This document shows, piece by piece, positions 812 through 56,329 of a stretch of 64,000 bases of DNA (positions within the stretch are counted from its first letter, which is position 1; each line of letters begins with the position of its first letter). The notes beneath the pieces were generated by a model. That model was given only the letters and a program-made list of their open reading frames with translations, made no database searches and had not been told where the DNA came from. This DNA comes from Candidatus Sungiibacteriota bacterium (GTDB lineage Bacteria > Patescibacteriota > Minisyncoccia > Sungbacterales > SURF-37). Location: NCBI GenBank assembly GCA_016186145.1, contig JACPMF010000007.1:19302-83301 (forward strand), written 5' to 3'. Made by a program: the position numbers and the translations under genes.

Positions 812-825
812 AAAAATTCATCTAA

Positions 826-40602: not shown

Positions 40603-40974
40603 CTACCGTCGGCCCTTGATAGTGAGAATGCTGGCACCAAGAATGTTGGCTATCTCAATAAGCTCGTTGAGCAGGAATTCTATTTCTTGTCTGTTGCCGC
40701 GGCCAGTATCACGGAGAACAGCCAACCAAAATCTGGATTCATTGGCCGACTTTAGCGCATGATGCAAGAAATTTGCGAAATCTTTTTTAGAGCTTGCTGC
40801 TTGGGCTTCTATATAGTTTGCTCCCACACTCCCGCCGCTACGAAATAATTGATCAACAATTCTCTGTGTAATAGTGTCTTTAGGAGCTGAATCAAGAAAT
40901 TTGATTAGACGTAGTACCCAAATATAAATGCGGCGCTTAAATTCAGTTTTGAATTTTTCCTTGTCGTTTTTCAT
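40603..40974 (-). CDS. four-helix-bundle protein (TIGR02436-like; 23S rRNA intervening-sequence protein family)
   Basis: 123 aa. ...RSGGSVGANYIEAQAASSKKDFANFLHHALKSANESRFWLAV... matches the characteristic motif. Confidence 0.75.
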   Translation of the reverse strand: MKNDKEKFKTEFKRRIYIWVLRLIKFLDSAPKDTITQRIVDQLFRSGGSVGANYIEAQAASSKKDFANFLHHALKSANESRFWLAVLRDTGRGNRQEIEFLLNELIEIANILGASILTIKGRR

Positions 40975-41536: not shown

Positions 41537-42472
41537 TTACTCTCCCTTTTTCAACTCCTCGTCAGTAAGGTCATGGAACGAATCGGGGTGTTCAAGGTCG
41601 AATTTTGTCACATGCTGAAGATGATGCGGATCGAATCCCGCTTGACGGATTTCTTGGATCAGCGCGCGAAACTCCGCCCTGTCCTTAACTGCCGTTGCCC
41701 CGGCCCGGCGCGGAAGCTGGCGATCAAATACGATTTTTGATCCCCTCTTGACCTCTGCCCCGTTTCCCCGCCCATCGCTGTAAAACTGCGAGAGAACAAG
41801 GATGCGAGTGCCAACGTACACGGCCTCTTCAAGGTCGTGCGTGACAAAAAAAATCGTCATCTCGAACCGTTCCCAGAGTTCCAGCAAAAACACCTGAAGG
41901 TGTTCCCGCACTCCGGGGTCCAGCGCGCCAAACGGCTCGTCCATCAAAAGGATCTTCGGCTTCATGATCAGGGCTTGCGCCAGCGCTACCCGCTGCTGCA
42001 TGCCGCCGGAAAGCTCGTGAGGAAACTTATCTTTGTGTTCCGCAAGTTTGACTGCCTCGATGTAGAACATCGCTTCATCGTGAAATTCTCTACTCTTCCC
42101 AAGCGACCCCAGAATCCCATGCCCTAACCGCCTTCCAAAAACTACATTGTCAAACACCGTCAGAAACGGATAGAGCGAGTATTGCTGGTACACGATACCC
42201 CGGTCAACACTTGGGAAACCAACCGGCTTTCCACCGACCGAGACCTCGCCCGAAGTCGGGCGCTCTTCACCGAGAACCAATCGGAAAAGCGTTGACTTTC
42301 CGCACCCCGAGGGGCCGACCAAAGAACAAAGTTCTCCGCCGCGGACGGCGAGATCAACATTGTCAAGAACAACTTTCGGGCCATACGCCTTGTATACATC
42401 CTTGAGAAAAAGCACGCTCGCCCTTCGAAGCTCGTCGGCCGTTTTGATCATCCTCATCCCCCTATGACTCAC
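41537..42472 (-). CDS. ABC transporter ATP-binding protein (NitT/TauT family)
   Basis: Walker [10 protein letters not shown], signature LSGGMQQR, Walker [13 protein letters not shown]-loop, plus a roughly 60-aa C-terminal extension. Confidence 0.9.
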
Positions 42473-43334
42473 GAACCACGAAATACCAGGGATACTTCCA
42501 ACGCATATAAGTCCTTAACAGCCAATCTGCTGCAAAACCGAGAAATGTGATAAGCAAGACATACGGGATGATCACATCCATTGCCTGATAGCGGCGTACG
42601 AGATAAATGCGGTATCCCAGCCCCTCGCTTGCCGCAAACGCTTCGGCGGCAAGGAGAAAAAGCCATGCCGGCCCTAAAGAGAGCCGGACAGATTCGATCA
42701 GCCGAGGCATTACTTGCGGAAAAACAACCCTATACACAACACCAAGCGGCGATGCCCCAAGAGTTAACGCCTTCGTAATGTGTTCTTTCGGAAGTTTGCA
42801 TGCGGCAAGATGCACATCAAGCGACATCACCCACGCCGTGCCGATGAAAATCAAAACAACTTTCACCGTCTCGTGAACGCCGAATGCAACCAAAAGAATC
42901 GGGAGAATGGCAAGCGGCGGAACGATTGACAAAAATTTCGTAAACGGCAGAAGAAGCGCGCGAAACCCGGGGAAACATCCCTGATTCAACCCCAGGAAAA
43001 GAGCGCTAAGCGCGGCAAGCGCCATGCCCATGCCGAGGCGCCTCAAGCTTGAAAGAGTATCCTGAAGAAGAATGTAGTGCCCAGTGCGTAAATCTTCGGT
43101 TGCTACTAACTCCTTAACCGCTTCTGCCATTTTCATAACAGAGGGAAGATATTTATAGTCAGGATTCTCCTTAAGACGAATGTCAGATGCGATAAGATAA
43201 ACGCTTACCAAAACAGCAAACGGTACCAAAGCGAGAAACCAGTTCAAATACCTCCCTGGTCCGGCATGAAGCCCCCAAAAGCACGGGTTTCTCCTGCGGC
43301 GTTCCCAGAAATTCATTAGCTTTTCTCGCATCAA
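42462..43334 (-). CDS. ABC transporter permease (NitT/TauT family)
   Basis: 6-TM permease with the EAA-like loop (...ALTLGASPLGVVYRVVFPQVMP...). Confidence 0.85.
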   Translation of the reverse strand: MMREKLMNFWERRRRNPCFWGLHAGPGRYLNWFLALVPFAVLVSVYLIASDIRLKENPDYKYLPSVMKMAEAVKELVATEDLRTGHYILLQDTLSSLRRLGMGMALAALSALFLGLNQGCFPGFRALLLPFTKFLSIVPPLAILPILLVAFGVHETVKVVLIFIGTAWVMSLDVHLAACKLPKEHITKALTLGASPLGVVYRVVFPQVMPRLIESVRLSLGPAWLFLLAAEAFAASEGLGYRIYLVRRYQAMDVIIPYVLLITFLGFAADWLLRTYMRWKYPWYFVVRES

Positions 43335-43501
43335 TGCCTCCTGTTTTTCTTGTAAAGGTGCTTTTTCACTTTCGCGAGCATAACATAGAATTTAACAAGC
43401 GTCAAATTGACTTTAATAAACAGCTGTGGTACATATTACATATAGTTCCCTTTGTGTCGTGTCGGCGAAGGCGCAGACCCTAAAAACCCTGGAGGGTAGA
43501 C

Positions 43502-43759
43502 GTGAAAAGAGTTAACGTTACCGAAACCTTTGTTATCTTAATCGCCCTTGCGCTTGCTGGCTGCCACGGAGAAGAAGACTGGACAGGAGAAGTGCGGCTC
43601 ACCAACGGCACGACCCTTTCCTGTCCTGCAAGTGTTGACTTCAGCGGGGACCCAATTTCTTGTTATCAAAGCTCAACCACTGAAAATCATACGCCGATTA
43701 CCGTCCCTCGCAACCAGGTTTCTGAAATCCTTGTACGAAATAAAAAGACCTTGAAATAG
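43502..43759 (+). CDS. small lipoprotein (hypothetical)
   Basis: GTG start with GGAGGG RBS. Signal peptide with lipobox LAGC. 85 aa. Confidence 0.5.
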   Translation: MKRVNVTETFVILIALALAGCHGEEDWTGEVRLTNGTTLSCPASVDFSGDPISCYQSSTTENHTPITVPRNQVSEILVRNKKTLK

Positions 43760-43768
43760 ATCAGCCGC

Positions 43769-43795
43769 GGTCCTCCAAAAAAGGACCGTTTTTTT
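43769..43795 (+). terminator. rho-independent terminator
   Basis: GGTCCTCCAAAAAAGGACC hairpin followed by GTTTTTTTAT. Confidence 0.6.
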
Positions 43796-43847
43796 ATAAA
43801 AAAGCCCCGCTATCAAAGCGGAGCGTAATCGTATCTAAAGAACTTCT

Positions 43848-44915
43848 TTACAGCTTCCCTTCAGCGGCAAGCTGTACGTATGTTGAATTGAACCGAAGCT
43901 TCACATTCTTGGAGTTGCCCATGACCGAGCCGTCAGGGAACTGAATCCCGACATGATCAGGCGACTTCCCCTTGTAAAGCCCCTTCTTGTGGGAGAACGT
44001 GCGCACGAGATCCATCGTGCGCTTCAGTTCCGGGCTCTTGGTGAAAGCCGCGGCATCAGCCGCCCGATAAAACATGGCAGTAGTCGCAAGCTGCGCTTCG
44101 AACTCTGCCGGCGTCGCACCGGCCTGCTTGGCCATGAATTCCCGAGCCTTCTTCGCCTCGGGACCCCGACCGGACATCACCGCCATGGTTTCGTACCATG
44201 CCCCAACGAGCGCTCGCTTCACATTGTCAGGAGTATCAGTACGGACCACGAGCATGTCGATGATCTCGCCGGGAATCTTCGAAGAATCGAACACCATCTT
44301 CACCTTCGAATCGTTCCGCACCAGCATGAGGTGCGGGTTCCAGGTGACAATCGCCGCGTTCGGAGCGGAATCGTTTCGAAACGCAGCAACGATATCGGCC
44401 TCATCCGTATTCAGGAGAGTAACATCGCGCGGAGAAACACCGCCGCCGACAATCTCGAGCCCCCGGTAAAGGAGATACGTCGAGACAGAATCGTCGACGA
44501 TGTATGCCCGACGACCCTTCAGGTCGGCAAGCGTAGCGCCGTTACGAAGCACCACGCCGTCATTGCCATTTGAGAAGTCACCAACGATGAGAGCCGTCGA
44601 GTCGACGCCTCCAAGCGCAGGACCGATCAAAACGTCCATGTTTGTGATAGCGATGCCGCAGGCGTTCCCCGAAGCGTAACTGTCAATCGTTGCGCCATAG
44701 CTCGCGAAATGAAGTTCGACATTCGCCTTGTGCTTTTGGGCATGCTTCTTCAGTATGCCCGAAGCCTCCATATAGCCCCAAGGTTCCCAACCGGTATACC
44801 GTGACCATTCAACGCGGCACGGCTTCCCTTGAGCAGATACCCCCGAATTCATGAAAACCGCCGCAAGGAAAATCACGAGAATCACTCCGAGAGAAATCGC
44901 CGTCGTCTTCTTCAT
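43848..44915 (-). CDS. ABC transporter substrate-binding protein (NMT1/SsuA/TauA-like)
   Basis: Signal peptide MKKTTAISLGVILVIFLAAVFM. About 330-aa periplasmic-binding fold. Same cluster as the permease and ATPase. Confidence 0.7.
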   Translation of the reverse strand: MKKTTAISLGVILVIFLAAVFMNSGVSAQGKPCRVEWSRYTGWEPWGYMEASGILKKHAQKHKANVELHFASYGATIDSYASGNACGIAITNMDVLIGPALGGVDSTALIVGDFSNGNDGVVLRNGATLADLKGRRAYIVDDSVSTYLLYRGLEIVGGGVSPRDVTLLNTDEADIVAAFRNDSAPNAAIVTWNPHLMLVRNDSKVKMVFDSSKIPGEIIDMLVVRTDTPDNVKRALVGAWYETMAVMSGRGPEAKKAREFMAKQAGATPAEFEAQLATTAMFYRAADAAAFTKSPELKRTMDLVRTFSHKKGLYKGKSPDHVGIQFPDGSVMGNSKNVKLRFNSTYVQLAAEGKL

Positions 44916-44969
44916 CCCTGTTCCCTCCTTTTTGGGTTTGGGTGGTTTTTATATGTAAGCAATCAAAGA

Positions 44970-46211
44970 CTACTCAAGATCGATGTTAATCCGCGGCCGT
45001 GCAGCTTTCCCCTTCTCCATGTCTTGGATCGCGTGTTCTGCATCGGTAGTAAGCTGGTCAAGATCCTTAATGCTCTGCGCCATCTTCGGCAGAGACTCGA
45101 CGCGGAATCGCTGGATATCTTCAAGCGCTCCACGGATATCGGCAAACGCCGTCTTCATGACTTCAACCGGAATCATCTCGCCGGATGCAACCTTCTGAAT
45201 TTCAACGCCCTGCTTCCGAAGCCGTGCCGCAGTCCTCTTGATGAGTTCCGCGGTCGATTGGTTCACCGCAAGTAGCTTGTCGAGCTGCACCTGCTGATGG
45301 GCAAGGGCGATAGTCAGCGTCGTTGCCACCGTCAAACCGCTAATGGTCGAGGTGAGCGCAAGATCAATGCCGCGAATGAGTTCATGGTTCGTATCGACAA
45401 TCGTCTCATAAGCGATCACGCCCATCTGGTTGATACCGAGCTGCGTCTGAAGCGCCATCACTCGCTGACGAAGCGGGAACAAAAGCTCTTTCTGAATGAA
45501 AACGCGCTGCGAGTCGCTCTCGCCAAGCGTCCCGATCTTTGCTTCAAAATGCTTATCCATGAGCATGCCGACCTTGACGAGCTTTTGCAGCTTCAGAGTA
45601 AGCTCGCGCATTTCAATCTGATCCGCGCGAAGAATTTCGCAATCGCGCGCAAGCTGGCCTTTGCCGGTCCGGAGAGAACGCGCGATATCGTCGATGACCG
45701 TACGCGCCTCTTCAAACTGGATGAAATACGCCTTCACCCTGTCGCCAAGAACAGGAGTTCGGCCAAGCATCCGGCTAAACCATCCGCCCTCAAAATCCCA
45801 TTGGTTCGGATCGTGCTCTTCAACCTGGATCTTCAGGTCCGTCAGGACCTTAGCAACGTCGACAACGGCGTCTCCATCCTTCACGGTACGATCCAGCCTC
45901 GCCAAACGCTTGATCGGCTCGCGCAGCATCTCGGACTTGCGAGCAGAAGCGTTGACCACCTCAAGACCCATATTGTCTACCGCTTCCCGATTCGCGGCTT
46001 GCGCCTTGAAATCTTCCGCCTTGATACTCATCAGTTCAGTGGCATATTTCTCCGCAAGAGCAACGAGTTTCGGGTCTTCCTCGAGCCCGACATGAAGCTC
46101 CTTCGGGTCAACGAGACCGAGATCCTTCTTTAGCTGACTCTGATCCACGGCCTTTAGGGACTGAACGGACGGGTCTTCCGTAACAACGGTTTGCTGAACC
46201 TGTGCTGGCAC
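44970..46211 (-). CDS. TelA-like toxic anion resistance family protein
   Basis: 413 aa, highly helical/coiled-coil. Composition and length fit TelA/KlaB (pfam05816). I recognised it by pattern, without a profile search. Confidence 0.55.
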   Translation of the reverse strand: MPAQVQQTVVTEDPSVQSLKAVDQSQLKKDLGLVDPKELHVGLEEDPKLVALAEKYATELMSIKAEDFKAQAANREAVDNMGLEVVNASARKSEMLREPIKRLARLDRTVKDGDAVVDVAKVLTDLKIQVEEHDPNQWDFEGGWFSRMLGRTPVLGDRVKAYFIQFEEARTVIDDIARSLRTGKGQLARDCEILRADQIEMRELTLKLQKLVKVGMLMDKHFEAKIGTLGESDSQRVFIQKELLFPLRQRVMALQTQLGINQMGVIAYETIVDTNHELIRGIDLALTSTISGLTVATTLTIALAHQQVQLDKLLAVNQSTAELIKRTAARLRKQGVEIQKVASGEMIPVEVMKTAFADIRGALEDIQRFRVESLPKMAQSIKDLDQLTTDAEHAIQDMEKGKAARPRINIDLE

Positions 46212-46236
46212 GGCCTCCTCCTTCTTTTTCCTTTTT

Positions 46237-47157
46237 CTACTTTTTCACGCCGCTCTTTTCGTCATCAGCGTCTGCACGAATAAAAGAATCTCCGGTACTG
46301 CCTCGTGCGCGGCGGATAAGCGACTCCAGCTCTTCGCGCGCGGTCTCAACATCAAGGGTTGCCTCTCCACCCGTTCTCATCTGGGCAACCGCAAAGCGCG
46401 TTCGGTCAAGCTGTGTGAGCGCTTCTTCATTCCTCGTAAGGAGGACATTAATCTTCTCAAGCTGTTCCTCATGCACAAGCTTGCTTACCTTCAATGTTTC
46501 AACTTCTTCCTGATCGGCCTTTTGCAAAACCTTCATCCGCTCGAGTTTCTTCAAACGGTCGGTGATATACCTCATGTCGGTCGCATCAATGCTTTTCAGG
46601 AGATTCGCGATTTCGCGAAGATTGTCAAGAATCGCAAGATACAGCTGCTCGGCTGTTCCTAAGAAACGGCCGAACATCAGCTCTCCCTGGCTCAACTTAT
46701 CCGAAAGAATTTCGTGAAGGGCGTTAAACCCTCGCTCTGCAAGAGCAAACTGCTGAACACCTTGTTCCGCGTATTCGCTCCCAGCCCCTTCCGACTTGCT
46801 GAATGCGGCCAGTTCTCTCGTGAGCCGCTCCAGAACACCTTTCCGCTCGGCAATCATCTGCTCGCGGAGCTTCCGGATGTAATGGTTCGCAATCGAATCT
46901 TTCCTGAAGTAGTTAAACACCCAGCTGGAAAGACCGAGGCCGGTGCCACCCGCAGCGATGACGACAAACAAAAGCGACGGCTCAAGCACTGCCAAAGCCA
47001 ACGCGCCTATCAAACCGAGCGGAATCGTCACCATGGCAAAACCGTTCTCAAAAATCTTCTTCCGAACTGCCTTTGCTACCGACCCGCTTGAAAAATCGAC
47101 GGGTCCCGCCCGGGGCGCATCAACAGCTGGTATGTTTTTCTTCGCCACGCATATCAC
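46237..47157 (-). CDS. hypothetical membrane protein (2 TM plus coiled-coil; XpaC-like)
   Basis: 306 aa. Two N-terminal TM helices then a long coiled coil. The position directly upstream of telA resembles the xpaC-telA pairing in Firmicutes. Confidence 0.45.
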   Translation of the reverse strand: MICVAKKNIPAVDAPRAGPVDFSSGSVAKAVRKKIFENGFAMVTIPLGLIGALALAVLEPSLLFVVIAAGGTGLGLSSWVFNYFRKDSIANHYIRKLREQMIAERKGVLERLTRELAAFSKSEGAGSEYAEQGVQQFALAERGFNALHEILSDKLSQGELMFGRFLGTAEQLYLAILDNLREIANLLKSIDATDMRYITDRLKKLERMKVLQKADQEEVETLKVSKLVHEEQLEKINVLLTRNEEALTQLDRTRFAVAQMRTGGEATLDVETAREELESLIRRARGSTGDSFIRADADDEKSGVKK

Positions 47158-47166
47158 CCCCTTCTT

Positions 47167-48525
47167 TTAGTACGTCTCGGACATCAACAGCAGTTCCACG
47201 CGCGGGAGCCGATAACTGTACGCCCGGTCATTCGGTGACTCACCGGGCAGCAACGGCAGAGGCTCGTCAGAGCCCATACCAACCGCCTTAATCCGGTTCG
47301 TATCAATGGAGTAAGTTACCATAAGATACCGAGCAACGCTTTCTGCCCGTTCATGCGAGAGCTTCTTGTTCTCTGCCGGGTCTCCGGCAAGAGCAGTATG
47401 CCCTTTCACCAAGACGCGGAACTTCGGATAGTGACGAAGCTTTTCCACCGAGGCGTCAATCTTCTCTTTTTCCTGAAGATGAAGTTCGCCGCGGCCTGTT
47501 TGGAATACAACCGGCTCGATCTTCAAAGCGCCAACCGGCTTCAACGAAGCCCAGCCGGCATCGTTAAGCGGAGAAAACGCGGCTTTCAGAGAATCTTCGG
47601 AGGGAACGGGCGATTTCGCGCCGACGTCCATGAATCCGGACGCGCTTGAAAGAAGAAGGTCCTCGATGGGCTTCTTGTAGGTAAGGCGATACGGATCTTT
47701 GTCGGGAATCGGATTCGACGAAAAATCTTTGCTTGCGACGAGAATCTTTACCGTAGCTTCAATCGCCGTAATCAGTCCCGCGTCCGCTCCCCCTCCGACG
47801 CCAAACCATTTCTGGCCGTTATCGGTGAGCGACGCCCACTGGACGCCCTTCAGCATTGCTTTCACGGCGTCCGAAGAGAGTTTAGTCTCTTTCGCGACTT
47901 CCTGCTCAAGAAGAGCGGGGTTATCGCGATAATTCTTCAGCACCCGGAAATACGTCCCCAGTAAAAGGTTTATCGCCTCAGGATTGTTCGCCGCGAATTT
48001 CCGGCCAACCAAAAGAATGTCAACAATCAATCGCTCGGTATTCTCCGTGCCAAGAAGTTTAACCACGCCCTTTTGAGAAAGCGCCTTGGAAACGTCCGGC
48101 TCCCAGAGCACTGCGACTTCGACCTTGCGGCCGGAGAGCTTTTGCAACGCATCGGAAGATCCGTCGGTCTCAACCCGCCGCGCGCCGGTCACCAGAAGCT
48201 GCGGCACGTCAAAATGTTCTGCCGTTGCTTTTATCAAATGGTGGCTCGGAGAGTTCGGGGTAAATCCGACCTTGAAATCATTCCGCTTCTTGAGGGCCTC
48301 AAGATTCGACGCAACATCCTGCCACGCAAGAATGGCGTCACCGCCCTTTGATTCGTCGACAACGGCGATTATCGCGCCGGGAAACTTCCGGGGCGCGGCA
48401 TTCAGGATGTATGAATCGACCGTCGCCACCGCAAAATCAATCTCGCCCTTATCAAGACGTTCAACCCGCTTTGCATAGTCGGCCTTATCATCTTCGCACT
48501 GGAGCAACCATCCTGCGGAACGCAC
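47167..48525 (-). CDS. periplasmic binding (NMT1-like) domain fused to C-terminal OmpA-like domain; the N-terminal signal-peptide segment appears to sit in a different frame
   Basis: C-terminal ...RVLVKGHTALAGDPAENKKLSHERAESVARYL...GMGSDEPL is OmpA_C-like. The N-terminal part is similar to the SBP at 43848..44915. GTG start with a stop 6 codons upstream. Confidence 0.6.
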   Translation of the reverse strand: MRSAGWLLQCEDDKADYAKRVERLDKGEIDFAVATVDSYILNAAPRKFPGAIIAVVDESKGGDAILAWQDVASNLEALKKRNDFKVGFTPNSPSHHLIKATAEHFDVPQLLVTGARRVETDGSSDALQKLSGRKVEVAVLWEPDVSKALSQKGVVKLLGTENTERLIVDILLVGRKFAANNPEAINLLLGTYFRVLKNYRDNPALLEQEVAKETKLSSDAVKAMLKGVQWASLTDNGQKWFGVGGGADAGLITAIEATVKILVASKDFSSNPIPDKDPYRLTYKKPIEDLLLSSASGFMDVGAKSPVPSEDSLKAAFSPLNDAGWASLKPVGALKIEPVVFQTGRGELHLQEKEKIDASVEKLRHYPKFRVLVKGHTALAGDPAENKKLSHERAESVARYLMVTYSIDTNRIKAVGMGSDEPLPLLPGESPNDRAYSYRLPRVELLLMSETY

Positions 48526-48647
48526 TTCGTAGCACTTGCGTCACTCGTCGCCAGATGCTGGCGTTCCTGCCAGATCGGCTTTCCGAAACGAACCCCGACA
48601 ACGATCAAAACACCCAACACGAAAATCAGTATCGCAACCTTCCGCAT
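48402..48647 (-). pseudogene. signal-peptide ORF fragment (MRKVAILIFVLGVLIVVGV...) out of frame with the SBP-OmpA gene; likely frameshift or sequencing error
   Basis: 81-aa ORF with a canonical signal peptide, overlapping the 5' end of the 47167..48525 frame. The two frames are both open over about 48400..48540. Confidence 0.35.
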
Positions 48648-48755
48648 GTGCGAACCCCCTCATTCCTTATTTCCCTTATTAAATTGACAAAATTACTGCA
48701 TTAATCTGTAGCATAAACTCTACATTCTGTCAAGAAAAAAGAGGGCTTTGCCCTC

Positions 48756-49646
48756 TTACCTTTTTTCGCTTTTCAGCGCCTGCTTTGCAGCAAGCATATC
48801 GCGCATTTGCCCCTCGTCTAAAATCGGATAGTGCGGACTCAATTGCTTCAGACGAGCCGCAACAATTTCGGCAACCGTTGTGCGCGCGGACCACTTTTTG
48901 TCAGCCGGGATGACATACCACGGCGCGCGGGCTGTTGCCGTATTATTGATCGCGTCCTCGTATGCGCGCATGTATTCTTCCCAGTGTGCGCGCTCGCGGA
49001 TATCTCCCAAAGAAAATTTCCAATGCTTCTCCGGCCTTCTGATGCGCCGCAAGAAACGCTGTTTCTGTTCGGCTCGCGATATGTGCAGAAAGAACTTCAG
49101 AACCACAATACCGTTCCGAGTCAGATACTGTTCCCAGTTTCTGATGTCTTCGAAGCGCTGCTTCCAGATGTCCTCGCCGGAACATTCGCGAGGGAGGCGC
49201 TGCCTCAAGAGAAGTTCGGGGTGAACCCGTACCACAAGAACTTCTTCATAGTGCGAACGGTTGAAGACCCCGATTCGTCCCCGTTCAGGAAGGGCCCGCG
49301 CCGCGCGCCACAAAAAATCGTGATCAAGCTCCTCGTCGGAGGGCGCACGGAAGTTGGTCGTCTGAAAAGCGGTCGGTTTGATTCCGGAAAGCACATGTTT
49401 GATGACGCCGTCCTTCCCGGCCGTATCCATGCCCTGCAACACAAGCAAGACTCCATAGCTATTCTGCGCCCAAAGAATTTCCTGAAGCTTCCTTAACTGT
49501 TCAACTGCCTTTTCCAAACGTCCGAGCGCTTGCGGTTTATTTTGCAAAGAACCGGTCGAGGCCGAATTATAATCCTGAAGGCGAATCGGTCGTTCTCCCG
49601 TCACGATAAAATCTTCAAATTCCATTACAACGCCTCCGGTGTTCAA
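48756..49646 (-). CDS. ppk2: polyphosphate kinase 2 (PPK2)
   Basis: Walker A GMDTAGKDG, Walker B and lid motifs. About 296 aa, one-domain PPK2. Confidence 0.9.
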   Translation of the reverse strand: MNTGGVVMEFEDFIVTGERPIRLQDYNSASTGSLQNKPQALGRLEKAVEQLRKLQEILWAQNSYGVLLVLQGMDTAGKDGVIKHVLSGIKPTAFQTTNFRAPSDEELDHDFLWRAARALPERGRIGVFNRSHYEEVLVVRVHPELLLRQRLPRECSGEDIWKQRFEDIRNWEQYLTRNGIVVLKFFLHISRAEQKQRFLRRIRRPEKHWKFSLGDIRERAHWEEYMRAYEDAINNTATARAPWYVIPADKKWSARTTVAEIVAARLKQLSPHYPILDEGQMRDMLAAKQALKSEKR

Positions 49647-49745
49647 TTAAGTCGTGACGTTTCGCTTTATCGTAGATTACCTAAAAAACAAAATTTGTCA
49701 AGAAAAAAGAGGAGCGATGCTCCTCTTGGTGTTGTTATTTCTCGA

Positions 49746-50555
49746 CTACTGCTGCACAAACGCTTTCACGTCGAATACGGGTGATTCGGCAAGCACTGCT
49801 GCGAGCAGCGCCTCGCGAAGCGACTCCGGACTGCTTGCTTCCCGATAGTTGGTGCGCCCGACCTGGTTTAACGAATGCTTTAACCCAATACAGAATCCCG
49901 CGACGTCGACAACCACTGGCGATGTTGCAATAATTTCGTTAACGGCATCGGTAGGGTCGTAACCAAAATTTGCTTCTCCATCAGTCACGACAACAAGATG
50001 ATATTCGCCATAACCACGCTGGCGCCGCGCCTGAATCATAAGCTTTTCATACCCCGCCTTGATTGCGGTCGAAAGCGGCGTACCGCCATCGGCACGCAGA
50101 GCCCCAACCGCACCCTTGAACGCACGCCGGTGTTCCTGCCCGACGCCAAGCGGCACAAGCTCCTTAACGCCATGGTCGCTATTAAACACAAGTAGTCCGA
50201 GGTTCGCCCCGACGGGAACCTCTGCGGCAACCTCGCTCAAAACTCGCTTAGCGACATCTGCCTTTGGCTCTCTACTGTTGCATGCATTCTCTCTCATGCT
50301 CCCGGAGAAATCAGCAATGAAGTAATAATTATTGGCCAAAAGGTTTTCAACCAACAGAACCTCCTCACCCTTTGCGGGCGAAGGCGGCCAATTGGCTCGA
50401 ACGGCAAATCCGGGAATACTTTGCGCCGTGCCGTTGCTTTGAGAACCAGCGGCGTTCGTCGATCCCGACGATAAAGGAGCGCTGCCGTCACACGCACTAA
50501 GCGCGACGACGGAAAGAAGGGAAAGGCCGACCACGAAAATCGTTGGTCGCTTCAT
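49746..50555 (-). CDS. VWA-domain lipoprotein
   Basis: Lipobox LSAC. MIDAS DxSxS (ADFSGSM) and TDGEAN motifs of the von Willebrand A domain. Confidence 0.8.
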   Translation of the reverse strand: MKRPTIFVVGLSLLSVVALSACDGSAPLSSGSTNAAGSQSNGTAQSIPGFAVRANWPPSPAKGEEVLLVENLLANNYYFIADFSGSMRENACNSREPKADVAKRVLSEVAAEVPVGANLGLLVFNSDHGVKELVPLGVGQEHRRAFKGAVGALRADGGTPLSTAIKAGYEKLMIQARRQRGYGEYHLVVVTDGEANFGYDPTDAVNEIIATSPVVVDVAGFCIGLKHSLNQVGRTNYREASSPESLREALLAAVLAESPVFDVKAFVQQ

Positions 50556-50567
50556 AGCTTCCCCTCC

Positions 50568-52346
50568 TTACTGAAGCGGCTTGAAGACCGAGGCCTCGGC
50601 CTCGACCTGAATGATACGGAACTCAACCCGCATATTGTTTCTCCACTCCTGCTCGGTCTTCGGAGCGCACGGGTCAACCCCGCACATACCGGTCTTCGCC
50701 TTGACGATCCCGTGTCCGACCGTTGCAAACTGGCTCGGATCGAGACGCACGCTCTTGCCCTTCGCGTATGCAATGATGCTATCGCGAACGGCGTTCGCGC
50801 GCGTAAGACTCAAGTTTTTTGCCGCCTGCTCTACCTGCCGAAGGGCCGCTTCCGGAATACCCTGCTTCTTCTGCCGGAGGTACCCAAGCGGATCGCTATG
50901 GCCCTCGACGGTAATCACCGCTCCGCCGTAGGTAGAAACGAGTTCAACGACTTTCGCGAATGAGTCCCGATACAAGTCAGCAGGAAAAGCATTCTGATTC
51001 GGCTCGAAGTAGACTTCGAGAGAGAAAAGCTCGCCTTCGGCAAGCGTGCCCTGTTGCTGCTTCCTCGTAACAACCTTGGCAACCTCGCCAGTGTCGAACT
51101 TCGGCGCTTCAACTCCCTGAACATCGCGAAGACCCTGCGCAAGAACTTTGTAGTCCCAGCGAGCGTGATCAAGCGCGACGCGACCGGACAAAAGCCCGAG
51201 CGGAATAAAGGATGTCTGGATCTCGCCCGTCAGCTTATCGAGGTTCCTTGGATACGCCGGGTCCCCGAAAAACTTCACATTACCGCGGTACCCGACGAAC
51301 TCCGCATCTCCGTACATCCCCTCGGTATCGGCAACAGCGCTCGGACTGTCCATCAGAATGGTGGCGGCAGCTGAAATCATCTGCCGGTACTCGGCCTGAC
51401 GAGCAGTCTTGTTCTTCACCAGGTCACGAAGCATCTCTTCAGCGCGCATGAGAGCGCGGGTGAACTTCTGAACTTCGGCGCGATGCGCCTGCAGATAGTC
51501 AACACGCACCGCATAGACGTCCGCGATGACGCGGTTTGCCGTCTTTGTGGAAAGCATGATGCGCGCGCCCTTTACCGAATCCTCTGCGCCGCTCCCGGTG
51601 TTTCCGCCGGAAGTAAGCGCCAGGGCGTCAGGAATAATAACGAGCGCGGCATGCACCGACGGATCAGTGCGAAGAGCCGCGGCCGGCGTATTGTCATTGC
51701 CGGTAAGATCCTTCGTCCATTTAATGTTCACATCCTTAATGGAAAGCCCTGCGTCAGCAAGGATCTTCGCCAGATAATCAACATGCGGCCCGTATGCCTG
51801 AACGGCGATGGTCTTCCCGCGAAGTTCCTTCGGCGTCTTGATTCCGGACTTTACTACGAGAGCATCTCCGCCGTTCGACCACGTAAGTTGATAAACGACA
51901 ACCGGCTTGGTTTTCGGATCGCGAGAAGCGGCCCCGATGCACATATTGATCATTCCCAGCGTTCCGCGAAGGTATGGCGTCTCGCCGCGAATATACATTT
52001 CACACTGCTTCCTGAAATCATCTTCACGGAAAAGAACAAAATTCAAGCCCTCCTGGTCGAAAAAGCTTCCTCGCTGCGTACTCTTCTGATTGCCGTTTGC
52101 ATAAACCGTTGCGATATCGCCCCCCCACGTGATCAGAGGAACCTTAACCGAACCTGAACCGACATCGCCCGCCTTTGCAGTCACGACCTGGCTCAAGGGC
52201 GGCGATTGAATGTACTGCGGGACCGCTTCGCTAACCCCAGAAGAGACGACAACAAGTAGAACAGCAACGAACAGCGTGCTCATTCTTCGCATCTCGTGGT
52301 CCTCCTTTTCTCCGTTTTTGTTTTTCTTGTGTTTCTTGGAATCCAT
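50568..52346 (-). CDS. periplasmic binding (NMT1-like) domain fused to C-terminal OmpA-like domain (paralogue of 47167..48525)
   Basis: Signal peptide MRRMSTLFVAVLLVVVSSGVSEA. C-terminal ...ITVEGHSDPLGYL...LSLTRANAVRDSI... is OmpA_C-like. 592 aa. Confidence 0.7.
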   Translation of the reverse strand: MDSKKHKKNKNGEKEDHEMRRMSTLFVAVLLVVVSSGVSEAVPQYIQSPPLSQVVTAKAGDVGSGSVKVPLITWGGDIATVYANGNQKSTQRGSFFDQEGLNFVLFREDDFRKQCEMYIRGETPYLRGTLGMINMCIGAASRDPKTKPVVVYQLTWSNGGDALVVKSGIKTPKELRGKTIAVQAYGPHVDYLAKILADAGLSIKDVNIKWTKDLTGNDNTPAAALRTDPSVHAALVIIPDALALTSGGNTGSGAEDSVKGARIMLSTKTANRVIADVYAVRVDYLQAHRAEVQKFTRALMRAEEMLRDLVKNKTARQAEYRQMISAAATILMDSPSAVADTEGMYGDAEFVGYRGNVKFFGDPAYPRNLDKLTGEIQTSFIPLGLLSGRVALDHARWDYKVLAQGLRDVQGVEAPKFDTGEVAKVVTRKQQQGTLAEGELFSLEVYFEPNQNAFPADLYRDSFAKVVELVSTYGGAVITVEGHSDPLGYLRQKKQGIPEAALRQVEQAAKNLSLTRANAVRDSIIAYAKGKSVRLDPSQFATVGHGIVKAKTGMCGVDPCAPKTEQEWRNNMRVEFRIIQVEAEASVFKPLQ

Positions 52347-52520
52347 TATCGGCCAAAAGTTCTCTATCCACCTCCTTTTTGGCTTCCTCTAAAAAAGAAA
52401 AATGTTAATGTACACAATATACACTAGTACACTATTTTTAACTATTTGTAAAGGGCTCGGTGGACAATAAAATATTTTAATGTTATAATTTTTAAGCTCG
52501 TTGCCAAACAGAAAACGCAC

Positions 52521-53585
52521 TTGGACCAGGAGGATTCCGTGTTTGATGAAAACACCGTCGCCAGGCAGATTGCCAGCGGGCATAAGACCGGCCGCAAAAC
52601 ATTCGCATTTGACGAAAACCACGATCCGACAGAACCGATTACGATGTGGTTCCAGGATACAGGAGAAGGGTTGGGCTTGTTCGTAATTTTCTATACGCAA
52701 GCGTGCCGCTGGTCTCGATGCCTCGGCTGCAACCTTCCATCACTCTGCTCCCAATTCCCGGTCGGTTTCAAAAATGTCTTGACGCAGGTCGACCGCGTTT
52801 TTGCAAACCCCGCGGTCCAAAAGAGGCGCAGTGAAATCCGCCGGCTTATCGTGAGCAATAATGGTTCGGTGCTCGACCAAATCACATTCCCTTCAACCGC
52901 CTTAATGCATCTGGTGCTCCAAGCGCAACTGAATTTCTCCAATCTTTCCGTCCTGTGCCTTGAAACGCGCGCCGAGTATGTCGAACCGGCGGAACTGGAG
53001 TTTCTTGCGCGCGCAATCAAAGAGGGCGAGACCCCGACGGAACTTGAGCTCGCGATCGGTTTTGAGGCATTTGACGACAAGATCCGAAATAATCTGATGA
53101 AAAAAGGGCTGACGAAGAAAGTTTTCGAAGAGCTCATCGGCGATATGGCCGAACACCGCTTTCGCCTCAAGTGCTATCTGATGCAAAAGCCGATGCCAGG
53201 CATGACGGACGAAGAAGGAATCCGCGATATTCAGAATGCCATCGCCTACTTCGGAACCCTCTCCGCAGCACACGGCGGCAAAGACGCAGGACCCCGCGTG
53301 CAAATCAACGTACACTTGAACCCGACGTATGTCGCTAAGGGGACGATCTTGGAAAAAGCATTTTTGGAGGGCGGCTATACACCGCCGAACCTGCGCGATG
53401 TCGCCCGCGCGGCGCTCTTTGCAGAAAATCTTCCGCTGACCGTTTTCATTGGATTAAACGACGAGGGGCTGGCTGTCCCTGGCGGGTCGTTCATTCGTGA
53501 AGGCGATGACCCGCTTGTTGAGCGGCTTGAAAAATTCAACCAGCGGCAGGACTACAACATTCTTCATTCATTTGTCTCGTTATAA
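52521..53585 (+). CDS. radical SAM-like Fe-S enzyme with atypical CX4CX2C motif
   Basis: CRWSRCLGC cluster at about residue 63. Later ...IGFEAFDDKIRNNLMKKGLT... resembles the radical SAM TIM-barrel core. 354 aa. Confidence 0.45.
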   Translation: MDQEDSVFDENTVARQIASGHKTGRKTFAFDENHDPTEPITMWFQDTGEGLGLFVIFYTQACRWSRCLGCNLPSLCSQFPVGFKNVLTQVDRVFANPAVQKRRSEIRRLIVSNNGSVLDQITFPSTALMHLVLQAQLNFSNLSVLCLETRAEYVEPAELEFLARAIKEGETPTELELAIGFEAFDDKIRNNLMKKGLTKKVFEELIGDMAEHRFRLKCYLMQKPMPGMTDEEGIRDIQNAIAYFGTLSAAHGGKDAGPRVQINVHLNPTYVAKGTILEKAFLEGGYTPPNLRDVARAALFAENLPLTVFIGLNDEGLAVPGGSFIREGDDPLVERLEKFNQRQDYNILHSFVSL

Positions 53586-53711
53586 AGACAGGCAGCTTCC
53601 CCGGAAAGGAAGCTTTTTACTTATTATTGGGAAACAAGCAATTGACATTTTATAGAAAACATAGTAAAGTCATTTAAATGTTTCGGTACCTTAAAAACCC
53701 GAGGTGAAGCC

Positions 53712-55298
53712 ATGGCCGATGACATAGAAGGCCGCTGGGGGTCTGATAACTTCCTTGACGCGCTTGGGTTGTCGCACCTCAAATCAGTTCTCGGGCGCAG
53801 GCGAGGGCAAGCTTCCGAAATGAATCCTGCAACATCGAGGGGCTACGAAGAAGCGCTCGAAGCGGCAAGAAAAAAAATCCGCGAGCAGGGAATAGAGCTG
53901 CAACGGCTCTCTTCGCACCCATTCGACTACGCAACAGTTATCACCGTAAACCCGGGAGAACTGTCGGCAGTTATTATCCATGAAGGACGCGTACGCGAAG
54001 TAGCTTTACCAACCGGCAAAAACATTTTGCCCGGTGACACGGTTAAAATTTCAAGCGCCACAATGCAAATCATCGCCCAGGCCGCGCAGATTCCCGCCGG
54101 TAATGTGGGAATTTTACGGCGCGTGGGAACCGAGGCAAGTGAAATCGATTATCAGGGTGTCACCAAAGTTGTTCTCAATGGAAAATGCGCCGGCTCTCTT
54201 GAGACCGGCGACCGAGTACGACTCGACCAGCACGGATTCGTCATCACCGCAAAACTCGAAAGAGAAGAAGAGCGCTACCGCTTTTCCGAGGAAACCCACG
54301 TGCAGTGGAGCGACATCGGCGGATGCGACGACGCAAAAGAACTGCTTATCGAGGCAATCGAGCTTCCTCACGAGTTCCCGGAGCTTTTCAGCGCATACAA
54401 CAAGAAGCCCCCGAAAGGAATTCTTCTCTACGGGCCTCCGGGTTGCGGAAAAACAATGCTTGCCAAAGCGGCCGCAACGGCGCTTGCCGAAACCCACCGG
54501 AAGAAAGACGGCCCGGCCGGGAATATTCCTTCCGGATTCTTCTTTATCAAGGGGCCTGAACTTCTTGATAAATACGTGGGTGCCACCGAAGCAAAAATAA
54601 GAGAGGTGTTCGACCTCGCGCGCCGGCATGAAGCAAAGTACGGCTACCAGCCGGTTATCTTTTTTGACGAAGCCGACGCGCTTCTTTCAAAGCGCGGCTC
54701 CGGCATAAGCTCGGATATGGAACGAACCATCGTACCGATGTTCCTTTCCGAAATGGACGGCTTGCAAAAAGCCGGCGCCATCGTGCTTCTTGCGACGAAC
54801 CGGCCTGACGTTCTGGATCCCGCGGTCATCCGGGAGGGACGGATCGACCGAAAAGTGAAAATCCCGAGGCCAACCAAAGAAGTCTCGGTTGTCATCTTCG
54901 AACTGCATCTGAAAGGCGTGCCGTTTGCGAACAAAGACATCACGCACGAACTCGTCTCGCAATTCGCCGCAGACGCGCTCTTCTCCGACGAACGAGTGCT
55001 CTACGACCTTCTGCTCAATCCGGCGGACCAAGAGAAAAAAGCCGTTTTCGCGCTTCGCGAGCTGGTAAACGGCGCAATGATTAAAGGAGCCGTCGACAAG
55101 GCAACTTCTATTGCGCTCAACCGCGACAGAAAAGCCGGCAACAAGACGGCAACGGGCATTACGAAAGAAGATATTACAGCCGCTATTGATTCCGCATTCC
55201 GTGAAAACTTCGACATGAACCACGACGACGAACTTGAAGAATTCCGGCGCGAGCATGGCGGAGGAATCCCGCTGAAACGCGTGCAAGCGCGCGTGTAA
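53712..55298 (+). CDS. ARC/Mpa-like AAA+ ATPase (coiled-coil, tandem OB-fold interdomain, AAA module)
   Basis: Walker A GPPGCGKT. ...FFFIKGPELLDKYVGATEAKIREVF...IFFDEADALLSKRGSGISSDMERTIVPMFLSEMDG... closely matches the proteasome-associated ATPase (ARC/Mpa) family. No C-terminal GQYL. Confidence 0.7.
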   Translation: MADDIEGRWGSDNFLDALGLSHLKSVLGRRRGQASEMNPATSRGYEEALEAARKKIREQGIELQRLSSHPFDYATVITVNPGELSAVIIHEGRVREVALPTGKNILPGDTVKISSATMQIIAQAAQIPAGNVGILRRVGTEASEIDYQGVTKVVLNGKCAGSLETGDRVRLDQHGFVITAKLEREEERYRFSEETHVQWSDIGGCDDAKELLIEAIELPHEFPELFSAYNKKPPKGILLYGPPGCGKTMLAKAAATALAETHRKKDGPAGNIPSGFFFIKGPELLDKYVGATEAKIREVFDLARRHEAKYGYQPVIFFDEADALLSKRGSGISSDMERTIVPMFLSEMDGLQKAGAIVLLATNRPDVLDPAVIREGRIDRKVKIPRPTKEVSVVIFELHLKGVPFANKDITHELVSQFAADALFSDERVLYDLLLNPADQEKKAVFALRELVNGAMIKGAVDKATSIALNRDRKAGNKTATGITKEDITAAIDSAFRENFDMNHDDELEEFRREHGGGIPLKRVQARV

Positions 55299-55348
55299 AC
55301 CAAAAAATCAAAAACCTCATCGTACTGATGAGGTGTTTTCTTTTTGTG

Positions 55349-56329
55349 CTACTCCTTTACGTCGATGTCGAACCCGAAAATACTTCGCTTGCCGTATGTC
55401 GGAGGCGTTTTTGGGTCATCTTGAACCGACGTCACGTCATGCCAAAGAGGAGAATTGCGATCTTGCTGGAAAAGCCCTTGCCCGGGCTGTAAACATGCCC
55501 GCAGGTATTCTGTTTTTTTATCAGGCCCGTACACAATGCTCTCACCGCCAATAACTCCGTCGCGTTCAACGACCAAGGCGGAAATGATATAGTCCGCACC
55601 GTCCTGGTGAATGCCTTCAGGCGCATTCGTACCTTCGCCATCGGCGTCTGCAAAAATGCTTACCTGGTGAACTGCGGCCGAAAGCGTCTTAACTGCAGGT
55701 CGCACTTCCCGAATCATTTCCGCAACGCATCCGAGAAGGTGCTGGAAGTCAGGGTGGCCCGTAACCATTTCCGAAATCTCCTTAAAAGCGCGGGTGAAAG
55801 ACCGCGCGTCGCCGCTCTCCACATTTTGAGAAAAACTGTCTGCCGGACGCCGCGTAATTCTCCAACCCGCCGGCATAGACGGCTCGCGGTCGAAAAGAAG
55901 CCTGGCGATAGCGCGCTTTCTCCGCGGACGAATGCGCTCCAAAACCCACCGCTCTCCTTGTGAAAGCCGAACAATGAGATCGCCGACGTCCTCTAGCCCT
56001 TTTCTACCGGCATAATATTCGGGAAGAAGCGCATCGAGTCGGGACTTCTCATGGAAGAAGCGCTGTGTGAGATACGCCACCTGATCTCTTTTTACATCAT
56101 ACTCATCCCATGACAACAAGCTGAATGTTGGAGCGAGTTCACTGATGAACCGCTCCCGGTTAACCCCCAGACCTCCCAGATCAAACATGCGCACGGGATG
56201 TCCAATGGGGCTGCCCAATTTCGCCGAAAGAGCCGCCTCGTCAGCAAGATAACCGAAAAAGGGCTTTGTCATTGCTGTCCTCCGCTTTGAAAGAACACCA
56301 CAAACGATTTGCCCATTACTATACAACAA
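55349..56329 (-). CDS. hypothetical protein, possible 2OG-Fe dioxygenase-like (PF10014-like)
   Basis: ...APEGIHQDGADYIISALVVERDGVIGGESIVYGP... resembles the 2OG-Fe_Oxy_2 core. 326 aa. Confidence 0.4.
   Translation of the reverse strand: MLYSNGQIVCGVLSKRRTAMTKPFFGYLADEAALSAKLGSPIGHPVRMFDLGGLGVNRERFISELAPTFSLLSWDEYDVKRDQVAYLTQRFFHEKSRLDALLPEYYAGRKGLEDVGDLIVRLSQGERWVLERIRPRRKRAIARLLFDREPSMPAGWRITRRPADSFSQNVESGDARSFTRAFKEISEMVTGHPDFQHLLGCVAEMIREVRPAVKTLSAAVHQVSIFADADGEGTNAPEGIHQDGADYIISALVVERDGVIGGESIVYGPDKKTEYLRACLQPGQGLFQQDRNSPLWHDVTSVQDDPKTPPTYGKRSIFGFDIDVKE

Follow-up and report, generated by a model that had tools for sequence, protein, structure and literature searches.

The minus-strand genes between positions 41537 and 52346 of the window, the 64,000-nucleotide stretch of Candidatus Sungiibacteriota DNA analysed here, are real, and eight of them form a widely conserved and horizontally mobile cell-envelope module of putative function. 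In minus-strand order, the nine genes of this run encode a first solute-binding/OmpA fusion (SO1), a VWA protein, polyphosphate kinase 2 (PPK2), a second fusion (SO2), a protein with two transmembrane segments (2-TM), TelA, and the solute-binding protein (SBP), permease and ATPase of a NitT/TauT-type ABC importer. We define the module as these genes with PPK2 left out. Synteny of the core, SO1-VWA-SO2-2TM(-TelA) with the ABC genes, extends over about 77 species representatives from Desulfobacterota, Gamma- and Betaproteobacteria, Myxococcota and Parcubacteria-labelled MAGs; complete eight-gene sets, also present in Entotheonella, are cyclic permutations of one order across these lineages. The VWA gene directly follows SO1 in every locus examined, and SO1-VWA-SO2-2TM is the invariant core, with TelA outside it. 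The module also resides on seven Vibrio plasmids (e.g. pSEA2). Because of this synteny among species representatives and plasmids, we consider the eight genes to be one selected unit. The suggestion of an earlier note that these genes belong together in an envelope- or stress-related island is thus sustained, and the co-directional run that it described is present, although one small plus-strand lipoprotein ORF (43502-43759) interrupts it.

Could the grouping be coincidental, an ordinary nutrient-uptake operon beside unrelated genes? The block is indeed split by terminator-like hairpins 3' of the VWA, PPK2, SBP and ATPase genes, and for this reason it probably comprises, judging from these signals, several transcription units. 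Two of the hairpins, after VWA (49707-49727) and after PPK2 (48739-48757), flank PPK2 and are each followed by an identical TTTTTTCTTGACA; another lies after the SBP gene (43804-43824; all three on the minus strand). In addition, two genes have clearly been inserted: PPK2 and the small lipoprotein gene on the opposite strand. However, the eight module genes stand side by side in dozens of species representatives of different phyla, as well as on plasmids; this synteny contradicts coincidence, which we regard as extremely unlikely. The hairpins also count against the modular reading that we prefer, as they point to more than one transcript in this window.

PPK2 itself (48756-49646, minus strand) was correctly recognised as a single-domain enzyme of this family (PF03976, 213 bits; TIGR03709, 365.7 bits, exceeding the cut-off of 247), but its proposed membership in the system did not hold. 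None of the 77 related loci carries PPK2 at the SO1/VWA-SO2 position, where it occurs in this lineage alone, and the gene occurs among them only in L019, about 1.5 kb downstream of the cluster. PPK2 is an inserted cassette specific to this lineage and does not belong to the core.

SO1 (50568-52292, minus strand) consists of a signal peptide, a TauA/SsuA/NMT1-type solute-binding domain and an OmpA-like peptidoglycan-binding domain. Its longest ORF reaches 52346 (50568-52346); the start is most likely Met19 (52292), giving 574 amino acids as in the identical protein P0001. Profile searches supported the SBP fold and OmpA_C domain in both fusions, and each is a single gene whose full length is conserved across hundreds of genomes; this excludes the mis-joining of separate genes that had been raised as a possibility. 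The same note had called the architecture unusual and the two fusions paralogues, and neither description survived. SO1 has at least 2,199 homologues (57-70% identity), and PGAP holds a standing name for the SO2 type ('phosphate ABC transporter substrate-binding/OmpA family protein'). SO1 and SO2 are not close or recent paralogues (BLASTP E=0.31): their likeness was seen by hhalign only, with 92% probability over the SBP core. The identity of SO1 across phyla exceeds that of the ABC ATPase and is above that typical of SBPs; such conservation is as compatible with a structural protein or an enzyme as with a receptor.

SO2 (47167-48647, minus strand) comprises, in its intact form of 517 amino acids, an uncleaved N-terminal TM anchor, a divergent SBP-like domain with weak matches to the SsuA family and TIGR03427, and an OmpA-like domain (52.6 bits in a profile search). 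We found that its frame is shifted in the window: 73 nt are absent between 48525 and 48524, such that ORF 47167-48525 is an N-terminally truncated remnant and the signal-anchor is held by a separate 81-aa ORF (48402-48647, minus strand). Three independent assemblies (L083, L084 and L085) keep the 73 nt and encode the intact 517-aa protein with its N-terminal TM anchor; orthologues measure about 510-525 amino acids. Either the 73-nt deletion has inactivated the window copy or it is an error of assembly, and, given the frameshift, the module may be non-functional in this strain.

The VWA protein (49746-50555, minus strand; VWA domain 47.4 bits) is a lipoprotein with the lipobox LSAC, as the earlier note had proposed. 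Its MIDAS site is intact, and the motif DxSGS..GT..TDG is at least 95% conserved among 79 orthologues, which are tethered by a lipobox in some cases and by an uncleaved TM anchor in others. These signals place the protein on the extracytoplasmic side of the membrane, across from TelA, and we rejected its assignment to the cytoplasmic TerY/TerF type since it is exported or membrane-tethered. This location bears on the Ter-type framing initially given to the locus: a tellurite, xenobiotic or phage stress-response system in which a barrier beneath the membrane would consist of TelA and a TerY/TerF-like VWA protein, the other genes being accessories. Like terZABCDE and TerY-P systems, the locus combines a bona fide TelA family member with a VWA protein, which weakly matches the PADLOC TerY model (16 bits, E=0.0016), and has a mobile distribution, on plasmids and in a GC3-rich island; both TelA and the TerF VWA protein have been described as sub-membrane Ter components (Iyer et al. 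2021; PMC7824862). However, the cluster and its conserved neighbours contain no TerB, TerC, TerD/TerZ, PRTase, HAD, kinase or phosphatase; the VWA protein lies across the membrane from TelA; and TelA, unlike the invariant core, is dispensable in four complete loci and is replaced by a PspA-like protein in a variant described below. We therefore abandoned this framing as very unlikely to be correct.

TelA (44970-46211, minus strand; 413 amino acids, no signal peptide) matches PF05816 with 173.8 bits across profile positions 4-331 of 332, confirming the original call; it has no solved structure. Its gene is kept after the 2-TM gene in most loci and is absent from four otherwise complete ones. 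The 2-TM protein (46237-47157, minus strand), the presumed membrane partner of TelA, has a membrane hairpin and a cytoplasmic, all-helical domain of about 200 amino acids; its AF2 model is likewise all helices (pLDDT 73.8), an alignment of 40 orthologues (A2) revealed the motifs GELTYGRYLGxAEQVYLxxLDNL and NExAMTQ, and the family includes 1,107 representative clusters. The reported resemblance to XpaC proved to be one of architecture, with two TM segments and a helical domain beside TelA, but not of homology: PF10112 matched none of the 40 orthologues, even at E<=10. A match to Snf7 was sought in the 2-TM protein and was not found either. The Firmicutes xpaC-telA (yaaN) pair has the same arrangement, a telA gene directly after a 2-TM gene with a helical cytoplasmic domain; to our knowledge, it stands alone, without ABC, VWA or SBP+OmpA genes. 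In Firmicutes, TelA and its 2-TM partner XpaC have a role in envelope stress, and the pair is tied to envelope and membrane stress (daptomycin, nisin, bacteriocins) in E. faecium and Listeria (PMC6811118, PMC12791056). A B. subtilis sigma-W regulon study lists the pair (PMC3498285).

A divergent, Planctomycetota-type variant (L092-L099) encodes a 2-TM protein homologous to that of the window (hhalign 96.7%), with a protein in the TelA slot that is unrelated to TelA (hhalign 0.2%). The latter matches Vipp1/PspA structures (E about 0.01), and its homologues are named 'PspA/IM30 family protein' or 'phage shock protein A'. TelA is replaced in the variant by this PspA/IM30-like protein. The variant was also found in large IMG/VR contigs (130-490 kb); these are probably cellular DNA, because homologues of the PspA-like gene are mostly from Planctomycetota.

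The proposed NitT/TauT-type importer was borne out for each of its components. The free periplasmic SBP (43848-44915, minus strand) has a signal peptide and matches TIGR03427, the 'putative urea ABC transporter SBP' family, with 391.6 bits, above the cut-off of 333.9; the permease (42462-43334, minus strand; BPD_transp_1, 65 bits) has TauC, SaoP, NtrB and SsuC as its best NCBIfam matches; and the ATPase (41537-42472, minus strand; ABC_tran, 110 bits) shares 54-68% identity with orthologues in syntenic clusters. Urea-carboxylase-associated importers resemble this one in having a free SBP above the trusted cut-off with a permease and ATPase of matching type, whereas no urea carboxylase or allophanate hydrolase genes lie near the window's importer. 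A riboswitch was looked for in the window and six related loci, and none was found.

The importer may be separable from the rest. SO2, SO1 and the MIDAS-VWA protein could form a structural tether or sensor that links membrane to peptidoglycan, with the SBP folds as scaffolds or wall-state sensors instead of receptors for transport, and the ABC genes as a co-selected, separable unit. The C-terminal domains of SO1 and SO2 share the fold of the Pal, MotB and YfiB anchors, and SO2, with its uncleaved anchor and OmpA-like domain, has the topology of MotB; the window proteins differ in holding a complete SBP fold of about 300 amino acids between anchor and OmpA-like domain and in lacking Tol, Mot or Yfi partners. 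The unusual conservation of SO1 favours such a tether, as do several cable-bacteria loci with SO1-VWA-SO2-2TM-TelA and no ABC genes nearby, and a gene order that varies across loci as if assembled from two sub-blocks. Nevertheless, ABC genes adjoin in most complete loci, of both TelA-type and PspA-type variants, and SO1, SO2 and the free SBP all belong to one NMT1/TauA superfamily, which argues for a shared ligand logic. We consider a primarily structural tether or sensor unlikely.

In this genome, the block is a horizontally acquired, GC3-rich island of about 15 kb (GC3 0.52-0.66, versus about 0.40-0.55 in the flanks) in a Sungbacteria-labelled MAG. A gene for a 2OG-Fe(II) oxygenase (PF10014, 92.2 bits; 55349-56329, minus strand; GC3 0.54) marks its edge, and a homologue (62% identity) lies upstream of the cluster in L047. 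Divergent from SO1 is a RaSEA-like (radical-SAM-like) accessory neighbour with a Cx5Cx2C motif (52521-53585, plus strand; TIGR01210, 103.5 bits, under the cut-off of 212), homologues of which adjoin the cluster in L003, L005, L028, L036, L039, L041, L044 and L045. Beyond it lies a divergently placed ARC/Mpa-like AAA+ ATPase (53712-55298, plus strand; TIGR03689, 323.7 bits, under the cut-off of 504) with full-length PDB matches to Mpa/ARC (E about 4e-59). Full-length homologues sit inside the cluster in L003 and L047, making it an accessory partner in Parcubacteria-type loci; in other lineages, at least 26 loci have a different AAA, about 490 amino acids long, beside the cluster.

Mobility and a frequent AAA+ partner would also suit a membrane-acting defence, directed against phages or plasmids, that detects a perturbed envelope: the cluster occurs on Vibrio plasmids, in a compositional island and in IMG/VR contigs, and TelA genes of jumbo phages have been proposed to act in superinfection exclusion (PMC7824862). 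Yet none of seven proteins tested gave a significant PADLOC match, the cluster encodes no nuclease, protease, NADase or pore-forming effector, and the contigs are probably cellular, as noted above. The high conservation of SO1 and a dedicated nutrient-type importer are furthermore atypical of defence genes. A defence function is decidedly improbable.

The closest published description is instead, rather than ter loci, the PspA/Snf7-AAA+-ABC-PBPB+OmpA operon class of Ravi et al. 2024 (mSystems; PMC11237479), with the order PspA, PBPB+OmpA, permease, ABC-ATPase, TM+Snf7, inactive-AAA+AAA, exemplified by OGG56892.1 from Handelsmanbacteria. Both share an SBP fold fused to an OmpA-like domain, an ABC permease and ATPase, a membrane-anchored helical protein beside a soluble membrane-stress helical protein and, often nearby, a classical-clade AAA+ ATPase; the variant L092-L099 likewise has a PspA/IM30-like protein, in the TelA slot. 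The window differs in having TelA, with no detectable homology to PspA (hhalign 0.2%), two distinct SBP+OmpA proteins rather than one, a tethered MIDAS-VWA protein and a separate free SBP, and a 2-TM protein in which Snf7 homology was not detected. Ravi et al. make no mention of TelA or VWA in the PspA/Snf7 operon context (PMC11237479).

We propose, at about an even chance of being right, that the locus belongs, as a TelA-type representative, to a class of conserved modules that span the envelope and join three kinds of part. Domain identities, strict synteny and mobility were shown; the parts were located by prediction, using their signal peptide, TM and lipobox sequences. The first part would be a helical 'stress or remodelling' protein of the cytoplasm that associates with the membrane (TelA or PspA/IM30-like), with its 2-TM helical membrane partner; the second, an ABC importer of the NitT/TauT type and the free binding protein that serves it; and the third, SBP domains fixed to peptidoglycan through OmpA-like domains (SO1 soluble, SO2 also membrane-anchored), together with the tethered MIDAS-VWA protein. 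Against this proposal stand the unusually high conservation of SO1, the undetected Snf7 and XpaC homology of the 2-TM protein, the absence of TelA from some complete loci and the frameshift of SO2 in the window. If it is correct, SO1 and SO2 would hold SBP-fold domains in the wall zone, where a small solute would be captured or sensed, and the free SBP and ABC importer would then take it up. Given the relationship of the free SBP to TIGR03427, this solute could be a nitrogen compound resembling urea or guanidine. On the cytoplasmic side, TelA, recruited by the 2-TM protein, would stabilise or remodel the membrane under envelope stress, with an AAA+ ATPase as a frequent helper. Such a module would follow the logic proposed by Ravi et al. 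2024 (PMC11237479), in which membrane remodelling is linked to solute transport.

To establish the identities of the genes in the minus-strand block, we combined an ORF listing with profile scans. The gene order reported in an earlier note was recovered in full, with every gene on the minus strand. SO1, a fusion of a substrate-binding protein (SBP) domain to an OmpA-like domain (50568-52292; the longest ORF extends to 52346), carries a signal peptide, an NMT1/SsuA-type binding-protein domain (29.9 bits for Pfam NMT1, which exceeds the gathering score) and an OmpA-like domain scoring 22.9 bits, slightly below the gathering score of 27.2. It is followed by a VWA lipoprotein with lipobox LSAC (49746-50555), whose MIDAS site is complete (DxSGS, GT and TDG at least 95% conserved across 79 orthologues); by a polyphosphate kinase 2, PPK2 (48756-49646; TIGR03709, 365.7 bits, above cut-off; PF03976, 213.4 bits); and by SO2, the second fusion (47167-48525), whose OmpA domain scores 52.6 bits and whose N-terminal part is weakly similar to SsuA and TIGR03427. 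The remaining genes encode 2TM, a 306-aa protein with no family match (46237-47157); TelA (44970-46211), full-length against PF05816 (173.8 bits, gathering score 30; profile positions 4-331 of 332); a free SBP (43848-44915; TIGR03427, 391.6 bits, above the cut-off of 333.9); a TauC/SsuC/NtrB-like permease (42462-43334); and an ABC ATPase (41537-42472).

We assigned an OmpA_C-like peptidoglycan-binding domain on a profile score above threshold, or on a fold match together with the GH..D / N..LS..RA motif, and an NMT1/SsuA/TauA-type periplasmic binding protein fold on a profile or fold match; both assignments could be made. Profile scores also supported the earlier TelA, OmpA_C and PPK2 calls. 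Neither TelA nor the free SBP matched a solved structure, and the association with urea carboxylase that is typical of TIGR03427 was not found for the free SBP in the window. The observation is real and beyond chance, and the interpretation first placed on it is right in part.

SO1 and SO2, described in that note as paralogues, are not close ones: BLASTP between them gave E=0.31, and they were connected by profile-profile comparison only, which linked the SBP cores of SO1, SO2 and the free SBP (hhalign 92-96%). The three are old branches of one superfamily, each conserved separately. The SO2 gene of the window is also broken. Its ORF encodes 452 aa and no signal sequence, and the transmembrane (TM) anchor is encoded in a different frame, by an 81-aa ORF of its own (48402-48647); SO2 orthologues are about 510-525 aa long. 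In three independent Logan assemblies of sister samples (L083, L084 and L085), which are 99.2-99.96% identical to the window, 73 extra nt between window positions 48525 and 48524 yield an intact 517-aa SO2. Within the SBP domain, the segment that the window lacks encodes the first strand and the DNWxGY motif. The deletion (48524/48525, minus strand) shifts the frame, is not flanked by a repeat, and has two SNPs within 10 nt downstream; it marks either a pseudogene specific to this strain or an error of assembly.

Terminator-like hairpins lie 3' of the VWA, PPK2, SBP and ATPase genes, and the minus-strand block is therefore probably more than one transcript. PPK2 is bracketed by two similar hairpins of this kind (AAGAGG...CCTCTT; 48739-48757 and 49707-49727, minus strand), each followed by an identical TTTTTTCTTGACA, which comprises a T-run and a -35-like TTGACA; the arrangement resembles a terminator/promoter module that was duplicated on either side of an inserted PPK2 cassette. 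PPK2 occupies this position in the window lineage only, and thus we regard it as a passenger. The SBP and permease genes are separated by 513 nt; on the opposite strand, this gap holds an 85-aa ORF for a small lipoprotein (43502-43759, plus strand), which has lipobox LALAGC, a ribosome-binding site of GGAGG-like sequence and a terminator-like hairpin of its own (43767-43789). In L003, the locus of the closest relative, the same gap holds the radical-SAM-like gene. A search for riboswitches and RNA regulators with Rfam, covering the window and six related loci, returned tRNAs only. The window has a tRNA-Lys(CTT) at 738-812 (plus strand) and, 14 nt on, a second tRNA-like match at 826-885, which is weak (Rfam 35.5 bits) and was not called by ARAGORN.

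We then assessed the conservation of the cluster. For SO1 we counted at least 2,199 homologues; identity across phyla is 57-70%, with many invariant positions over the whole length of the protein. When one genome was scanned for each species, 270 relatives emerged, and 80 loci were analysed by tblastn synteny. VWA adjoins SO1 in every one of these loci, and SO1-VWA-SO2-2TM is intact nearly always, contig permitting. Eighteen complete loci have the order SO1-VWA-SO2-2TM-TelA-SBP-perm-ATP (perm and ATP being the permease and ATPase), ten have perm-ATP-SO1-...-SBP, and others have SBP-perm-ATP-SO1-... or TelA-SBP-perm-ATP-SO1-.... These complete sets (among L003-L082) follow a single 8-gene order up to cyclic permutation, broken before SO1, perm, SBP or TelA, and could have arisen from two reshuffled sub-operons or through a circular intermediate. 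TelA is absent from four complete loci, and in a few loci SBP is missing or the vicinity contains no ABC genes. Because the conservation of SO1 is unusually high and some loci lack nearby ABC genes, the proposal that SO1 and SO2 serve mainly as a structural tether or sensor is still a serious alternative.

Among the hosts are cable bacteria and other Desulfobacterota, Gamma- and Betaproteobacteria, Myxococcota, Entotheonella and several Parcubacteria-labelled MAGs. The cluster is also present on large Vibrio plasmids, in seven records; three of these, of pSEA type, are predicted to be mobilizable, and pSEA2 is typed MOBH. On pSEA2 of Vibrio alfacsensis (L088; NZ_AP019851.1) the cluster lies at 234-244 kb and is followed by three small hypothetical genes. 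There, PGAP names its products 'nitrate ABC transporter SBP', 'VWA domain-containing protein', 'phosphate ABC transporter substrate-binding/OmpA family protein', hypothetical, 'toxic anion resistance protein', 'putative urea ABC transporter SBP' and permease. A different plasmid locus, from Sphaerotilus sulfidivorans (L089; NZ_CP035710.1), encodes a PhoX phosphatase, a hypothetical protein, TelA, a 551-aa vWA protein, a further hypothetical protein and an ExeM/NucH extracellular nuclease, a context that hints that TelA-VWA pairs may be connected with phosphate scavenging.

In the window, GC3 is 0.52-0.66 for the genes from the ABC ATPase to a 2OG oxygenase (41537-56329) and about 0.40-0.55 for flanking housekeeping genes (TsaE, PilB, PolA and others). 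The raised GC3 over 41.5-56.3 kb relative to the flanks fits horizontal acquisition of the cluster. GC3 falls to its regional minimum (0.40) in a '23S rRNA intervening sequence protein' gene between PolA and TsaE (40603-40974, minus strand; PF05635, 64.6 bits), which is far from any rRNA gene of the window.

The earlier note had framed the island as a Ter-type stress-response system, on the strength of TelA, an XpaC-like protein and the VWA protein. Our results do not support this reading. Domains of TerD/TerZ, TerB and TerC were absent from the 19 proteins scanned (33.7-57.8 kb), and no such family was recurrent in 77 related loci. Moreover, the VWA protein is extracytoplasmic, with a lipobox or signal anchor, and is not of the cytoplasmic TerY/TerF type (PADLOC TerY just 16 bits, E=0.0016), and the invariant part of the cluster is not TelA. 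A role in anti-phage defence is possible; against it stand the absence of an effector and of database support. The PADLOC-DB v2 defence models gave no significant component match, the only hits being TerY and ZorB/MotB, the latter through the OmpA-like domain (E=5e-5).

The 2TM gene lies directly upstream of the TelA gene. An alignment of 40 orthologues (A2) and an AF2 model show a cytoplasmic N-terminus followed by a 2-TM hairpin and a domain of about 200 aa that is helical throughout; a record from a 'Candidatus Sungbacteria' MAG contains an identical protein. Its description as XpaC-like stood as regards architecture and adjacency to TelA and failed as regards homology: PF10112 matched neither the window protein (E<=0.01) nor the 40 orthologues (E<=10), and NCBIfam gave no XpaC match to the window protein. 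A search for annotated XpaC adjoining TelA on plasmids found none. The likeness is one of architecture only. Firmicutes xpaC-telA pairs have been tied to envelope stress (PMC6811118, PMC12791056). Nor was homology of 2TM to Snf7/ESCRT-III detected, the top match of a PDB profile search being LemA (E=0.15).

A divergent variant of the cluster bears on the slot beside 2TM. Eight IMG/VR loci (L092-L099), in which SO1 is 33-35% identical, have the order SO1-VWA-SO2-2TM'-X-SBP-perm-ATP. We found that 2TM' is homologous to 2TM (hhalign 96.7%), and that X is unrelated to TelA (hhalign 0.2% for TelA against A4, the alignment of X proteins); 2TM against the same PspA-like alignment gave 0.3%. X gave colinear matches to many Vipp1/PspA/IM30 structures (E about 0.01-0.02), and its homologues, mostly from Planctomycetota, are named 'PspA/IM30 family protein' (one, NCBI) or 'phage shock protein A' (several, JGI). 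As X is PspA-like and unrelated to TelA, the slot beside 2TM takes either of two unrelated membrane-stress proteins. The 'viral' contigs carrying this variant span 14.8-494 kb; five measure 107-494 kb, and the larger ones are probably cellular DNA and not phage.

A related class of operons has been described, with the order PspA, PBPB+OmpA, permease, ABC-ATPase, TM-anchored divergent Snf7 and inactive-AAA+AAA; TelA and VWA are unmentioned in that context (Ravi et al. 2024, PMC11237479). The window shares with this class an SBP+OmpA fusion and an ABC permease and ATPase in one neighbourhood but has TelA in place of a PspA/Snf7 family protein; the L092-L099 variant does have a PspA/IM30-like protein. 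Clustering of all flanking ORFs yielded one further recurrent family, an AAA ATPase of about 490 aa whose C-terminal AAA domain is classical; for its N-terminal 228 aa, the possible counterpart of the inactive AAA in the published operons, no sequence match was found. It occurs in at least 26 loci, where it either diverges from SO1 or follows the ABC genes. The window has instead an ARC/Mpa-like AAA+ protein (53712-55298, plus strand; proteasome-ATPase-like, below the family cut-off), and the window showed neither proteasome nor Pup genes. This protein accompanies the cluster only in Parcubacteria-labelled loci: the window, L003 (12899-14428) and L047 (5776-7338), and in the latter two its gene separates VWA from SO2 within the cluster and is on the opposite strand. 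Another neighbour, a RaSEA-like radical-SAM-like protein (52521-53585, plus strand; TIGR01210, 103 bits, below cut-off), has the motif Cx5Cx2C and not the usual CxxxCxxC; its homologues adjoin the cluster in L003, L005 and Electrothrix/Desulfobulbaceae loci. We judge the chances about even that the cluster is a TelA-type variant of the published class. A full-text literature search found no published description of its gene combination.

TelA proteins form a large family with envelope-stress phenotypes involving nisin, daptomycin and tellurite. To our knowledge, no mechanism has been established for the family. The exchange of TelA for a PspA-like protein beside a homologous 2-TM partner argues for a PspA-like job for TelA at the inner face of the membrane. 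Domain identities, predicted topology, synteny and mobility are established by the data, and we can only infer the ligand, physical contacts and physiological role of the cluster. Its parts are predicted to fall into three zones: outside the membrane, wall-fixed SBP-fold proteins and a tethered MIDAS-VWA protein; across it, an ABC importer that has its own SBP; and 2TM and TelA, often with an AAA+ ATPase, at the cytoplasmic face. One conjecture, which we consider unlikely, is that TelA is a functional analogue of PspA/ESCRT-III and the whole cluster a device spanning the envelope. The SO1 and SO2 receptors and the MIDAS-VWA protein would then read a solute of the wall zone or the state of the wall; the SO2 TM anchor and 2TM would pass on the signal, switching on TelA-mediated membrane repair or remodelling with the assistance of the AAA+ ATPase; and the signalling solute would be removed or taken up by the ABC importer.

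The general operon class is already in the literature, and the value of the cluster would lie in being a well-defined candidate system. It offers a testable case of peptidoglycan-tethered solute-binding folds, and one that is mobile, with a range that includes Vibrio plasmids and extends to Parcubacteria-labelled genomes. The most useful new point is the exchange of TelA and PspA-like proteins in the slot adjoining a homologous 2-TM partner, which names 2TM as a candidate interaction partner of TelA. If the cluster does act as a device across the envelope, this interchange would give TelA a defined role.
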